A stretch of 64,000 nt of DNA from Nanobdellota archaeon (GTDB lineage Archaea > Nanobdellota > Nanobdellia > Parvarchaeales > Parvarchaeaceae), in the NCBI GenBank assembly GCA_021807125.1, contig JAKAPK010000001.1:251079-315078 (forward strand). Reading direction: 5' to 3'. Positions 9,739-62,449 of this stretch are shown in pieces. The translations under genes and the position numbers were made by a program. Positions within the stretch are counted from its first letter, which is position 1; every line of letters starts with the position of its first letter. Below the pieces are notes generated by a model. That model had not been told where the DNA came from. It did not search any database and was given only the letters and a program-made list of their open reading frames with translations.

Positions 9739-10782
9739 ATGGCAGGAAAAGGGGATTATTATAGAGTTTCTTTGGAGGACATGATAGCCTCACAAAAGAC
9801 ATTAAACGCTTATTTTGAGATCTTTGATAGATACAAAGAATTTAAACCGGAAGCATACGCGTTTGCGCTCCAGGTGATGGGATACAAGCGCATGAATTCT
9901 AAATATAACATAAATTGGCTGGATCAGAGTGCGACCGAACTTCACGTTTATGCGAAACAAAAGACTTTTTTTGATGAGTCTGGAAAAGCGCTCGATTTGA
10001 ATGATTTATATGAGAGCTTTGGTGAGAAGGACGTATCGAACGACATTAAAATCCTAACATATTCGATAGAAAGCACTCTTTCAACAGAAGGTTCGACATT
10101 TTTAGAGATTGACAAAAATTCAACACTAAAAGAAAACAAGTCAAATTACATTCCACCGTGCCTTGCAGGTATGAGAATAAAAATAGGGCAGTCAGAGAAA
10201 ACGCTAGACAAGGTGCTACTGCTTGACAGTTCCGCTAATTTCAGCTTCAGCGGAAATACGATCGAATTCGAAACTTTATCCACCAACTTCAGTTTCAATG
10301 AAAACGTATATTCGCTAAATATCAGCAAAACCTTAGACAAAAGCAGCAGTGAGCCGATTTACAGGCTTAAATACGTAATAAGAGAATTCGGTCCCGAAAA
10401 TCGCGATGTTACCATAGTAGACGAGGCAAATACTAAGATTTTAATCGCATTTGCGAAAGCAATAAAGAATGATATGATATTCTCAACAGTAACGTTGAAC
10501 GGCAATACGGATTCGCTTAGGGCAGCAGACTTGATCACCAAGAGAAAGATTACCAAACAATCGCTACAGGACCAGCTGTATAAAGAAGCCGAAACTATCA
10601 ATTCCGAGATAAAGGAAAGTGCAGCTTCTTACGTCCTTAATTCCGGTAGATATAAATTAAACAATGGACTTGTATGCGACGGTTTGAAATGTGTGCCTGT
10701 GAAGGTCTTTATAAAAAGCTGTGAAAATCTGGTAGACGAAATTACACTGTCAAAACTAAGCCGAATTGAAGGCTTTGGATAA
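9739..10782 (+). CDS. Hypothetical protein (orphan)
   Basis: 347-aa ORF with TATA-like TTTATAA about 30 bp upstream; no recognised motif. Confidence 0.7.
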   Translation: MAGKGDYYRVSLEDMIASQKTLNAYFEIFDRYKEFKPEAYAFALQVMGYKRMNSKYNINWLDQSATELHVYAKQKTFFDESGKALDLNDLYESFGEKDVSNDIKILTYSIESTLSTEGSTFLEIDKNSTLKENKSNYIPPCLAGMRIKIGQSEKTLDKVLLLDSSANFSFSGNTIEFETLSTNFSFNENVYSLNISKTLDKSSSEPIYRLKYVIREFGPENRDVTIVDEANTKILIAFAKAIKNDMIFSTVTLNGNTDSLRAADLITKRKITKQSLQDQLYKEAETINSEIKESAASYVLNSGRYKLNNGLVCDGLKCVPVKVFIKSCENLVDEITLSKLSRIEGFG

Positions 10783-10969
10783 TTACAATTTTTTTATAAA
10801 ATATCGCGCATTTCCAAGTATTTAGACTCGACTTTTCTATGTACCTGACAGCGTACGATCCTTATTCACGTCGCAGTACCATCAGCTGTGCCACATAAAC
10901 TTTCATTTTTTATTGTGTATTTCACTAATTAAAATACATACATTAGAAGACATCGTGAAAATGCGAAGT

Positions 10970-11584
10970 TTAAGGGGGTGATGCTAAATGTCCCGGTAAC
11001 GCCGCACCACCTATAATGAACGCAACTATTCCAGCGGCTATAAGAAGGATCCAAAGAACAGCAAGTAATATATTCCAGCTCATTGGCATGTCAATCTTTC
11101 TTTTTGGAAACTTATCAAGTATAAGAGAGGCTGGGAAAGTGAATATTGCCGCTAATCCAAACAATATAAATAAAGCGAGAAGCTCAAACGGCTCCTTTGT
11201 GAGCCCTAGAGAATAACTCGATATACCGTACCATATCGTCATGCCTCCAAACATTAGAGATAGGAAGCCGGCGTAACTCGTTTTTACGCGCAGTCTTATA
11301 CTTAATGAGAAAGCTAGCATTATTATGCCGAATGCGACAAGCGGATCAAAAAATAATATGTTGTACGGACCAGGTAAGAACCACATAAATTGAGATACTA
11401 CTCCTATGATCAGCGTATAAACGGCGACTATCGCCATGGTAATTGATAGGCTTTCTAACATCGGCTTCAGCGACATTTGACCCCTTCTATAGGCCCAATA
11501 CGCATCGGCCATCAAATAAGCCAATAAAAGCGCAGAAAACGAGATAGAGAAAAGATAAAAGGCAAGCTCATCTGTGAATGCCAT
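10970..11584 (-). CDS. DUF981-like membrane protein
   Basis: Likely start MAFTDELAF (ATG 11584); 'WFLPGPYNILFFDP', 'LTKEP'; about 6 TM segments. Confidence 0.75.
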   Translation of the reverse strand: MAFTDELAFYLFSISFSALLLAYLMADAYWAYRRGQMSLKPMLESLSITMAIVAVYTLIIGVVSQFMWFLPGPYNILFFDPLVAFGIIMLAFSLSIRLRVKTSYAGFLSLMFGGMTIWYGISSYSLGLTKEPFELLALFILFGLAAIFTFPASLILDKFPKRKIDMPMSWNILLAVLWILLIAAGIVAFIIGGAALPGHLASPP

Positions 11585-11707
11585 AGTCGCTACACTACTA
11601 TAAAGCAACCTCTCAATTTAAAGATTGATTTACAAAATAGTTTTTCCGGAGAGGTAATGAATAAGTAATATATCTCTAATACGGGCCGACTTCATTTAGA
11701 AGATAAT

Positions 11708-11790
11708 TGCAGAGGGAGGGATTCGAACCCTCGAAGGCCTGAGCCATAAGGTCCTTAGCCTTACGCGTTTGACCGCTTCGCTACCTCTGC
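11708..11790 (-). tRNA. tRNA-Leu(AAG), long variable arm
   Basis: Reverse complement: GCAGAGG-TAGCGAAGCGGTCAAACGCG-TAAGG-CTAAGGA-CCTTA-TGGCTCAGGCCTTC-GAGGG-TTCGAAT-CCCTC-CCTCTGC-A; anticodon AAG at 11756-11754. Confidence 0.93.
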
Positions 11791-11916
11791 ATTAATAAAT
11801 CTAATCTTATTATTTGTTGCTTATAAAAGATTAGTGGGACTCTCTTAAAAGAGAAAAAGCACATTAAGATCTAATTTTAATTTAGAAGCTATATCGCAGA
11901 GATGTCTTCTTTGTCA

Positions 11917-60956: not shown

Positions 60957-61035
60957 AAATAAGAAGCAAGCGTCCTTTTCGTATTAAGACACTAGTAAAT
61001 GAAAAACTCAAGACATACTGCTGTTTATTGCCGAC

Positions 61036-61218
61036 TCAATAGATCCTTCTTAGGCCACTTTCCTGCATGTTCTTCCAGTATCTGTAAATGGCATAACCTG
61101 TCCCTAATGTCACGGCAACGCCAAGTCCAACGAATGCCAGCGCTGGATCCACGCCTGCTCCGACAAATCCGCTCAGAGTTCCTGCTTCGCCCAATATCTT
61201 TGATAAATCCTGTTTCAT
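61036..61218 (-). CDS. Small Gly-rich hydrophobic protein
   Basis: 60 aa with TTTATATA about 25 bp upstream; Gly-rich TM segment followed by a basic tail. Confidence 0.6.
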   Translation of the reverse strand: MKQDLSKILGEAGTLSGFVGAGVDPALAFVGLGVAVTLGTGYAIYRYWKNMQESGLRRIY

Positions 61219-61357
61219 TGAATTATACAGAAATTACCAGATATATAAACTTTTATACACTTTTGAATAGTGAATTAATTATCAATAATAGCGTGCTTTG
61301 AACAGTTGGATATATTATTCGCTCAATGTTAAACATCACAAGTTTAGCTATCACAAC

Positions 61358-61861
61358 CTAATAGTTCTTCGGCACCAGCAAGCCCACATCCAGACTCATA
61401 CCGTAAAACCCCCCTTCGAATGATACTATCTGGAATCCAAACCTTTCATACAGGTGCACGCGCTCTTTGCGGCATGTGAGCTTTAATATCTCGCAGCCCA
61501 TTTTCAGTGCTTCCTGCCCCATCTGCCATATCAGCCTTGAGCCTATGCCTTTCCCACGCTCCTTATCATTCGTTACAAAATCGTTTCCATAGCCGATCTT
61601 CTTGCCGAAAAATCTGTATTCCCTGTATACTTCCAATGTGGCAGTGCTTACTATGCTGTCGCCGGCCTGCACTACATACAGGTAACATTTGTGGCCGTTG
61701 CGCTTCTTATGCCGTATAACACTATTAATTTCTTCGTTATAAGCCCAGTTAGCTGTGTCATCAAGTGCATGATCCAAGTCTACCCATAAACTATTGACCT
61801 GCTCTATATCATCCTGCGATGCGCGGCGTATTATTATGTCCTCCAGTGATTTGTCAGCCAT
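61358..61861 (-). CDS. GNAT acetyltransferase
   Basis: 'DFVT...RGKGIGSRL', 'LYERFGF'. Confidence 0.85.
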   Translation of the reverse strand: MADKSLEDIIIRRASQDDIEQVNSLWVDLDHALDDTANWAYNEEINSVIRHKKRNGHKCYLYVVQAGDSIVSTATLEVYREYRFFGKKIGYGNDFVTNDKERGKGIGSRLIWQMGQEALKMGCEILKLTCRKERVHLYERFGFQIVSFEGGFYGMSLDVGLLVPKNY

Positions 61862-62020
61862 ATCCGAAACGAACCTGTATTCTAGACATAAAGAATCCGA
61901 TTTCTATTTAAGCTTTTTAAGCATCACGTTCCATGATTTTTAGAATCAAATCGAACAAGTTTGCCGTATAAATGAACAATTTTTTATCTTGGATGATCAA
62001 AGACAAGACTCCTGCGAGTT

Positions 62021-62449
62021 TTAACGTCTTGTCATTCCGCTAATGTTTTCTATTGAGCGATAATTATTGTGTATTCCAACCATATCCTCTAATTCCCTGT
62101 ACCATGTACCGAATCTTTGTATGTACTCCTCGCCAAGCACTTTTCTGGCCTTCAAGAACTTCGCGTAATTTCCCTTCGTACGAAAATCATAAGATGGAAC
62201 ATGCCTTACGTGGTATTTCAACTTACCTAATGTGGTATTCTTGTCATTTACTAGTGAAATCAAGCCATTGTACCAGTCGACTGTACTATCAAGAGTGTTA
62301 TTCAAAAGTTCATTTGCATGGTGGTAAGCCCTATCCTTCTCCGGAGACTGGTGAGAATAAGTTGGAACGTCGTCAAGCAACTTCAACAATTCATTTCTGG
62401 CGTTTTGGGTCAACAATTTTGACAATACGTTCTTCGCCATATGATTCAC
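62021..62449 (-). CDS. Hypothetical protein (start possibly 62440, MAKNVLSKLL)
   Basis: About 140-aa ORF with TTTATA upstream. Confidence 0.6.
   Translation of the reverse strand: MNHMAKNVLSKLLTQNARNELLKLLDDVPTYSHQSPEKDRAYHHANELLNNTLDSTVDWYNGLISLVNDKNTTLGKLKYHVRHVPSYDFRTKGNYAKFLKARKVLGEEYIQRFGTWYRELEDMVGIHNNYRSIENISGMTRR

Follow-up and report, generated by a model that had tools for sequence, protein, structure and literature searches.

Short motifs near the N-terminus target proteins of eukaryotic parasites to their hosts, the Plasmodium export element (PEXEL, RxLxE/Q/D) and the oomycete RxLR-dEER motif being examples. Among other terminal peptides, those for encapsulation in bacterial microcompartments (BMCs) are amphipathic helices of 15–20 residues, encapsulins use cargo-loading peptides, and double-glycine leaders with the consensus LSxxELxxIxGG are cut by C39 peptidase transporters. 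A string of similar make-up is found in the helix N-capping box with its hydrophobic staple, in which S/T/N is followed by L-E/D-x and then by hydrophobic residues. Little is known of how DPANN archaea act on their hosts. Their genomes are tiny, about half of the genes have no assigned function, and we know of no effector or delivery signal that has been defined for them. Here we analyse a 64,000-nucleotide stretch of the genome of a Nanobdellota archaeon of the family Parvarchaeaceae (assembly GCA_021807125.1, contig JAKAPK010000001.1; G000:C7:251079-315078 in our numbering), hereafter the window, in which proteins, most of them without recognisable relatives, share a short N-terminal motif, [LIVM][ED]x[LIVM][LIVM] starting at residues 2–16 (the core, written LExΦΦ). 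This core occurs in excess at the N-termini of the whole genome and of its genus, and we think it likely that it constitutes a lineage-restricted N-terminal recognition peptide. A tag that picks out a small, mostly orphan protein set would provide a handle for experiments.

Like PEXEL and RxLR, LExΦΦ is a short, N-proximal motif that combines a leucine with an acidic residue, it is found on many unrelated, fast-evolving, lineage-specific proteins, and it appears to be retained while the rest of the protein diverges. PEXEL and RxLR, however, follow a signal peptide of the endoplasmic reticulum type and contain an arginine, whereas LExΦΦ has neither a hydrophobic signal nor a conserved arginine, is archaeal, and is known here from sequence alone. 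With BMC and encapsulin peptides it appears to have in common a short terminal helix, a poorly conserved flexible linker and unrelated enzymes as bearers, a layout seen in a 707-aa family described below. Unlike a BMC peptide, LExΦΦ spans just ~5–6 residues, its modelled helix has 5 residues, and no periodic hydrophobic residues follow position +4. The 78.6%-complete genome G000 gave no match to the BMC shell family (PF00936), in a search whose control was positive in 2 of 14 reference genomes, and none to encapsulin (PF04454); a BMC or encapsulin cargo peptide was rejected, no shell gene having been found in this incomplete genome. Double-glycine leaders resemble LExΦΦ in their N-terminal position, their Glu-Leu pair and their Ile/Leu spacing, but no Gly-Gly follows LExΦΦ; such a leader was rejected, as there is no GG in the sequence logo and no match to Peptidase_C39 (PF03412) in G000.

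Class III (type IV pilin-like) signals are also encoded in G000 (…[KR]SQSALEYMMTYGWAILII) and likewise hold a string of the form S-(A)-L-E-x-hydrophobic-hydrophobic near the N-terminus. There, the string stands directly before a transmembrane stretch and the body of the protein has 8.6% charged residues, whereas the proteins with LExΦΦ (the carriers) lack a stretch of this kind and contain 26% charged residues. Finally, the logo of LExΦΦ shows every element of a helix N-capping box, namely an S/T/N/D cap, an acidic residue and later hydrophobic residues, and several instances are integral helices or strands; yet, unlike a universal capping box, LExΦΦ has ratios of N-terminal to internal frequency of 1.65–2.14 in the genus as against 0.47–0.57 in G020 and G013, two archaea of other families of the class, and E. 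coli.

Definition of the motif core

Genes were called with a simple custom caller, a 3-periodic, 4th-order Markov model trained on long open reading frames (ORFs), with greedy removal of overlaps and the first ATG taken as start. All N-terminal counts given here rest on this caller, which its author calls crude. It returned 625 genes in G000 (653 kb in 7 contigs). Proteins of fewer than 60 aa were removed before counting, leaving 610 N-termini, and proteins with a 15-residue hydropathy of at least 1.8 within the first 50 residues were assigned to a membrane or signal class and excluded (119 of 610), so that 491 were kept. For comparison, seven other genomes of the class, each sampled over 166–496 kb, and 400 kb from E. 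coli K-12 were treated in the same way. G004 and G012 belong to the same genus as G000, while G023, G025 and G047 represent two sister genera of the same family; G020 and G013, from other families of the class, served with E. coli as outgroups.

An earlier note on the window had proposed a common N-terminal tag on sixteen accessory ORFs and quoted a string for each. All sixteen strings are present at the given coordinates and strands, three of them with the choice of an internal start: that at 52214 lies inside an ORF opening at ATG 52271, that at 57035 is preceded by GTG 56945 and ATG 57020, and that at 62440 is preceded by GTG 62449. A pattern loose enough to span all sixteen matches 291 of the 610 N-termini, just 1.2 times its frequency in internal 20-aa windows (39%). 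The motif had therefore been drawn too loosely, while the tighter core within it is truly enriched, as described below. The core is matched by seven of the examples (9739, 21801, 47993, 51083, 51597, 53769 and 61861). Another five (21450, 41937, 57035, 61218 and 62440) match just a variant with K, Q, N or S at the second position, and four (38469, 52214, 52781 and 59031) match neither. Judged by its ratios, which are 1.1–1.4 in the genus and 1.1–1.6 in the two outgroup archaea, this K/Q/N/S variant is not lineage-specific.

The note had also stated that none of the sixteen has a Sec, Tat or class III signal, and this holds for fifteen, whose maximal 15-residue hydropathy in the first 50 residues stays below 1.8; real class III proteins of G000 score about 3. 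The exception is 61218, a Gly-rich peptide of 60 aa and the sole one with an N-terminal hydrophobic stretch. No twin-arginine pattern was found in any of the sixteen N-termini. A Sec, Tat or class III signal was rejected as the basis of the motif on these grounds (no h-region in 15 of 16, no RR in 16 of 16).

Enrichment of the core at N-termini

In G000, 40 core sites were counted in 38 of the 491 non-membrane proteins, where the internal rate predicts 18.7 (p=1.3e-5). Sites that start at residues 2–5, 6–10 and 11–15 have densities of 4.6, 6.9 and 5.3 per 1000, respectively, compared with 2.2–3.1 per 1000 deeper in the proteins. The narrower pattern [LI][ED]x[LIVM][LIVM] occurs in 33 of the 491 N-termini, compared with 10.9 +/- 3.3 when the same N-termini are shuffled. 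Across all proteins, this pattern is found in 48 of 610 N-termini and 184 of 8521 internal windows (14.4 in shuffled N-termini); part of that excess is due to the class III signals introduced above, and the 119 proteins with hydrophobic N-termini were excluded for this reason. The excess is present in the window (8 sites in 7 of 54 proteins, 2.0 expected) as well as in the rest of G000 (32 against 16.7).

Several controls point in the same direction. Altered patterns (reversed, basic, shifted or respaced) gave ratios of 0.70–1.26, whereas the core kept ratios of 1.98–2.53 under three start-codon rules, in genes on which the rules agree and in classes of coding score, and was also stable to the choice of hydrophobicity cut-off. 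When 5-mers in a reduced alphabet were enumerated blindly and ranked by N-terminal enrichment, the core came first of 496 in G000 (Bonferroni-corrected p ~0.006), 11th of 176 in G004, 31st of 218 in G012 and last of 211 in the outgroup G013.

The consensus consists of a polar lead rich in K, S, E, N and T, 1–14 residues long after the Met, then [S/T/N]-L-[E/D]-x-[I/L]-[I/L/V], and then polar residues. In a logo of 77 sites, position -1 is enriched in N (2.7-fold), T (2.1-fold) and S (1.5-fold), E reaches a frequency of 0.21 (2.9-fold) at +2, and L, I or V occupy +3 and +4; K is enriched at -3/-4 and S at -2. The logo contains no conserved Q, G or Arg and no GG, with Gly at +5 just 1.8-fold up, and the hydrophobic residues after +4 have no helical periodicity. 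Leucine codons beneath the motif are diverse (TTA, TTG, CTT, CTC, CTA and CTG). Since the codons vary, the signal acts at the amino-acid level, and a nucleotide-level signal such as a promoter or downstream box was ruled out.

Distribution across lineages

The excess follows the phylogeny. Ratios of N-terminal to internal frequency are 2.14, 1.93 and 1.65 in G000, G004 and G012 (19 sites against 9.8 expected in G004, 21 against 12.7 in G012), 1.05, 1.23 and 1.19 in the sister genera (G023, G025 and G047), and 0.56, 0.57 and 0.47 in G020, G013 and E. coli, where the core is depleted from N-termini. In the genus, 77 of 1096 proteins are carriers, compared with 28 of 568 for the sister genera and 19 of 928 for the three outgroups (Fisher's test, genus against outgroups 8e-8, sister genera against outgroups 0.003). 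Inside proteins, the core occurs at similar rates in all genomes (2.3–3.0 per 1000), which rules out composition as the cause of the N-terminal excess. At the other end of the proteins, the core is enriched 1.3–1.7 fold in the last 20 residues in all genome groups, including E. coli. This C-terminal excess is a generic effect of C-terminal helices, and the N-terminal excess behaves otherwise. By these counts, the motif is restricted to the family, peaks in the genus and is found on ~7% of non-membrane proteins, mostly orphans.

Proteins that carry the motif

Proteins for which blastp against the sampled sequence of G004, G012 and G013 gave no match at E<1e-5 were termed orphan-like. In G000, this class holds 21 sites where 6.1 are expected (3.5-fold, p=1.7e-6), and conserved proteins 19 where 12.7 are expected (1.5-fold, p=0.06); the two classes differ (Fisher's test, p=0.006), while their internal rates are equal (2.6 and 2.5 per 1000). 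The carriers are unrelated to one another, no two matching at E<=1e-3, and paralogy was ruled out as the cause of the shared motif.

The window holds seven copies of the core, or eight with one doubtful ORF:

9739..10782, + strand: orphan protein of 347 aa, core LEDMI at residues 12–16 (nt 9772-9786), N-terminus MAGKGDYYRVSLEDMI
37235..37879, + strand: protein of 214 aa, N-terminus MIDTVLLDMDGV; core match classed as background (structural)
47993..48457, + strand: orphan protein of 154 aa, core LDELV at residues 12–16 (nt 48026-48040), N-terminus MGEMEEVGISSLDELV
50448..51083, - strand: protein of 211 aa with an HExxH motif (HEEAH), core IEGIL at residues 10–14 (nt 51042-51056)
51112..51597, - strand: protein of 161 aa with an HExxH motif (HELMH), core IEGIL at residues 6–10 (nt 51568-51582)
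53509..53769, - strand: protein of 86 aa, core LESLV at residues 11–15 (nt 53725-53739), N-terminus MVKEDGAANNLESLV
61358..61861, - strand: GNAT acetyltransferase of 167 aa (Pfam Acetyltransf_1, 48.1 bits), core LEDII at residues 6–10 (nt 61832-61846)
21801..22115, + strand: doubtful ORF of 104 aa, not picked by the gene caller, LEDLI at residues 6–10 (nt 21816-21830)

The 347-aa orphan has no match in Pfam or NCBIfam, gave no usable lead in the ESM Atlas and, at E<=1e-5, lacks a homolog in the 39 other genomes of the order; the 154-aa orphan has no match in Pfam or NCBIfam either and no blastp match in the sampled parts of G004, G012 and G013. The sole Pfam match of the 86-aa protein, to Cofac_haem_bdg, lies below threshold (23.7 bits, cut-off 27.7), and the 211-aa HExxH protein has none in Pfam or NCBIfam. 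The first 31 residues of the 161-aa HExxH protein align with residues 5–38 of the 211-aa one at 44% identity over 34 columns, the remainder being unrelated, so that the pair reads as a common N-terminal module on different putative metalloproteases. In a short-BLAST comparison of all first-40-residue segments, this was the single longer shared module. In the GNAT, Pfam models and the PDB chain 1z4e_A align from query residue 10–11, and the two hydrophobic residues of the motif enter the start of the conserved fold, probably its first strand, rather than forming a detached tag. In the 214-aa protein, the core match falls in the hydrophobic strand before DxDG, which we take to be HAD motif I; a relative in G012 starts MIKGIASDLDGT.

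Outside the window, three of 20 carriers pass a Pfam cut-off (a PrkA-type AAA protein, a thymidylate synthase and a Methyltransf_11 protein). Ten carriers compared with NCBIfam had no match above cut-off. A phosphoesterase-like protein is also among the carriers. HExxH motifs are present in 4 of 38 carriers and 7 of 453 non-carriers in G000 (p=0.007), and in 6 of 77 and 12 of 1019 in the pooled genus, a post hoc comparison of small numbers in which one ortholog pair is doubled. The note had labelled its examples with enzyme classes typical of effectors. Here, the GNAT is borne out by Pfam, and the proteins termed SprT and zincin do contain HExxH; the labels kinase, ADP-ribosyltransferase and transglutaminase have no profile support, and apart from one weak match to TCAD9, none of the proteins labelled kinase, SprT, zincin, ADP-ribosyltransferase or transglutaminase has a Pfam match at E<=0.01. 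With the GNAT as the sole profile-backed label and nine of the sixteen examples lacking the enriched core, the argument from effector-class cargo is a weak one.

Conservation and tag-like layout

Best-hit pairs within the genus that share less than 40% identity retain the N-terminal motif without exception (8 of 8), a count that includes both directions of some pairs and hence fewer families, while internal copies are kept in 21 of 81. In a family of 220-aa proteins (C2:64194), L[EDQ][ED][IL][IL] is present in seven of seven species at 19–39% identity, with conserved flanks as well.

The clearest layout of a tag is found in a family of 707-aa proteins that is confined to this lineage and has no sequence match in the PDB. 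The motif is kept in G000 and in all 12 orthologous loci examined, in the form M-x(3-7)-[STNMK]-L-[ED]-[ESD]-[IVL]-[IL]. An alignment of G000 with 11 of these loci shows the motif, a polar linker that bears insertions and deletions, and a conserved domain beginning KLRLV; in the relative from the sister-genus genome G023 the linker has ~45 aa. The twelfth locus, L132, was counted for retention of the motif and omitted from the alignment, as it has one in-frame stop within the first 250 codons, which may reflect a pseudogene or a sequencing error. An AlphaFold2 model of the 707-aa protein, built from a 12-sequence alignment, has a mean predicted local distance difference test score of 67.5, with residues 1–35 below 50; within these residues the model places just a 5-residue helix, on the motif.

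Where carriers would work

Three proteins in the window bear class III signals:

31993..34059, + strand: protein of 688 aa with a related class III-like signal, KSQSLLEFMTTWGWVILII
35679..36740, + strand: protein of 353 aa, class III signal behind a longer lead, …RKLQSALEYLMTYGWVILF
42701..46006, + strand: protein of 1101 aa with a class III (type IV pilin-like) signal, MPKSQSALEYMMTYGWAILII, in which LEYMM is followed by a transmembrane stretch

Altogether, nine large proteins of G000 (up to 1454 aa, three in the window and six elsewhere) have a near-invariant class III signal, SQSALEYMMTYGWAILIIVIV, and the same signal is found on many proteins of G004 and G012. For these nine, the medians are 8.6% for charged residues and 36.7% for serine, threonine, asparagine and glutamine, a composition that reads as a strong signature of exposure to acid. 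Carriers have 26.3% charged residues, compared with 27–28% in other cytoplasmic proteins. Since carriers are cytoplasm-like in composition, the tag is no route into the acid medium or onto the cell surface. On compositional grounds, secretion of carriers into the acid medium is excluded, whereas the cell's own cytoplasm and a directly connected host cytoplasm would both fit.

The window was recovered in 7 sequencing runs, all of them DNA metagenomes, with mine drainage as the source. For the archaeal Richmond Mine acidophilic nanoorganisms (ARMAN), passages of PMC4110969 describe cytoplasmic bridges that link them to Thermoplasmatales cells, as well as puzzling cytoplasmic tubes inside ARMAN cells. 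The tubes that bridge cells are described as host-derived, both in those passages and, for another DPANN archaeon, in parts of PMC11329633. Host bridges and the inner tubes of ARMAN are two conceivable destinations for carriers.

Interpretation

The chances seem to us evenly balanced that LExΦΦ acts as a functional docking peptide for a lineage-specific partner. A flexible N-terminal tail would present LExΦΦ for docking, and a partner protein specific to the Parvarchaeum-like lineage would read the peptide and then sort the protein that bears it or pass it on. Such cargo would work near neutral pH, in the cell's own cytoplasm or in directly connected host cytoplasm, rather than in the acid medium. 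The idea of a shared N-terminal recognition signal on orphans, put forward in the earlier note, has in this form survived controls on position, shuffling, paralogy, outgroups, pattern, start and orthologs, though not for the nine of sixteen examples without the core. No such motif turned up in searches of the literature on DPANN effectors and signals, nor in the parts consulted of the main genomic paper on the order (PMC10134863).

A number of observations weigh against a docking peptide. The enrichment is modest, at about twice the internal rate and with a surplus of ~20 proteins in G000, and by these counts background would account for about one in two of the matching proteins; the tag is unassignable gene by gene from sequence, and no individual instance is proven. 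No candidate reader protein was found in this analysis. The counts come from crude gene calls and from relatives sampled in part (about 166–496 kb each). A de novo expectation-maximization search of N-termini returned a Gly-rich, P-loop-like motif as the strongest signal in G000, not LExΦΦ; its motif scores lay barely above those of shuffled controls, and the search was uninformative for LExΦΦ. Best-hit pairs at 40–60% identity keep the N-terminal motif in 0 of 3 cases (113 of 274 for internal copies), and pairs of at least 60% identity in 8 of 14 (223 of 327), so that in both classes it fares no better than internal copies do. A search of 5.8 billion proteins yielded a single relative of the 211-aa HExxH protein; at 85% identity, its sequence at the site is IERAL, and the pattern is lost. 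Carriers are unclustered (7 successive pairs, 6.5 expected), on which ground an origin in genomic islands was rejected, and they do not lie near class III (pilin) genes (5 against 5.1 expected). The AlphaFold2 model, built on 12 sequences, has low confidence exactly at the motif region. Some instances are visibly structural, namely those in HAD motif I, KsgA, a KaiC-like ATPase, a helicase, the H0 helix of FtsZ and strand 1 of the GNAT. The helix before the FtsZ GTPase domain is motif-like in the outgroup G013 too, and this comparison identifies the FtsZ instance as ancestral and structural.

Such instances bear on a purely structural explanation, which we regard as unlikely: LExΦΦ would cap the first α-helix at its N-terminal end and form its first turn, a start favoured in the many small helical proteins of the lineage, and nothing would read it. 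N, T or S at -1 and E at +2 are what a helix capping box has, several instances do lie inside known folds, and the 1.3–1.7 fold C-terminal excess in every genome group shows that terminal helices can yield effects of this kind. Such a habit would, however, have to account for N-termini that are depleted in the outgroups (0.47–0.57) while internal rates are alike (2.3–3.0 per 1000), and for the equal internal rates of orphan-like and conserved proteins. It would also have to account for the 707-aa family, whose linkers range from ~6 to 45 residues while the motif remains at the very N-terminal end and whose model predicts an isolated 5-residue helix in a low-confidence tail, and for hydrophobic residues that show no helical periodicity beyond the motif. 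Were the motif nonetheless merely a structural habit, it would warn that helix-cap-like N-terminal strings need outgroup controls before they are read as signals. An artefact of chance, gene calling or pattern picking seems to us very improbable. The pattern was indeed first spotted by eye, the caller is crude, the loose definition matches almost half of all N-termini, and the sharper form L[ED]x[IL][ILV] was picked after the logo had been inspected. Against this, the core ranked first of 496 in the blind enumeration with a corrected p ~0.006, the excess was replicated outside the window and in G004 and G012, it is stable to start rules and coding-score class, and wrong starts would push the ratio toward 1, not 2.

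If LExΦΦ is a tag, it might also be an address label for contact-dependent delivery into Thermoplasmatales hosts or for the cytoplasmic tubes of ARMAN, which we think rather doubtful. In its host-directed form, the motif would be a translocation signal that sends effectors through a cell–cell junction into the host cytoplasm, an unlikely case in our estimation. The bias towards orphans and the retention of the motif amid divergence are traits known from the host-targeting motifs of eukaryotic parasites. Carriers include more HExxH proteins than non-carriers do in proportion, albeit in a post hoc comparison, and a GNAT, a PrkA-like AAA protein and a phosphoesterase-like protein carry the motif as well; carriers are cytoplasm-like and not built for the acid medium. 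Set against delivery are the dispersal of carriers, which form no islands and of which some are conserved across the whole family, and the want of Pfam support for most of the effector labels. We know of no translocation machine for such delivery, and none was found here, with just one T2SSE-type ATPase detected. The direct cytoplasmic connections between ARMAN and Thermoplasmatales in the passages of PMC4110969, together with the origin of the DNA in mine-drainage metagenomes, would supply a junction, whereas the bridging tubes are host-made according to the same passages and to those of PMC11329633. Should LExΦΦ prove to be an address for delivery or for tubes, Archaea would have in it their first non-Sec signal for cargo sorting to be defined by sequence, and it would mark ~20–30 candidate effectors or cargo proteins per genome.

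Other features of the window and related genomes

Near the doubtful ORF with LEDLI, the window contains a ribosomal RNA gene:

19866..21362, + strand: 16S rRNA gene, full length (Rfam SSU_rRNA_archaea, 1378.9 bits)

This gene has no adjoining 23S gene, and protein genes resume at ~22.4 kb. ORF 21450 lies just downstream of it and has weak coding potential, while ORF 21801 begins ~440 bases 3' of it and has no similarity to ORF 21450; both ORFs are doubtful.

G000 encodes two FtsZ paralogs (C7:162034-163116 and C7:201984-203114), one of which starts MVMDLLMESALK while the other has …DKSLEDLIMSKRASIKVVGVGG after ~30 residues. In G013, a cluster of small proteins at ~135–140 kb of contig C11 (L022-L023) has N-termini of the form M-x-K-GFTF-x-Q followed by a hydrophobic stretch; these resemble bacterial-type pilins and account for the 'hhsfb' pattern in the enumeration, found there 8 times against 0.2 expected.

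Two further observations concern the window itself. A tRNA of 112 bases at 8326-8437 on the - strand is recognised by Rfam and not by ARAGORN, and it probably contains an intron. Between 54000 and 58000, G+C content is 0.44–0.47, compared with ~0.38 elsewhere; this segment, which encodes a membrane-anchored DUF4382 protein of 563 aa along with orphans, could be foreign DNA.

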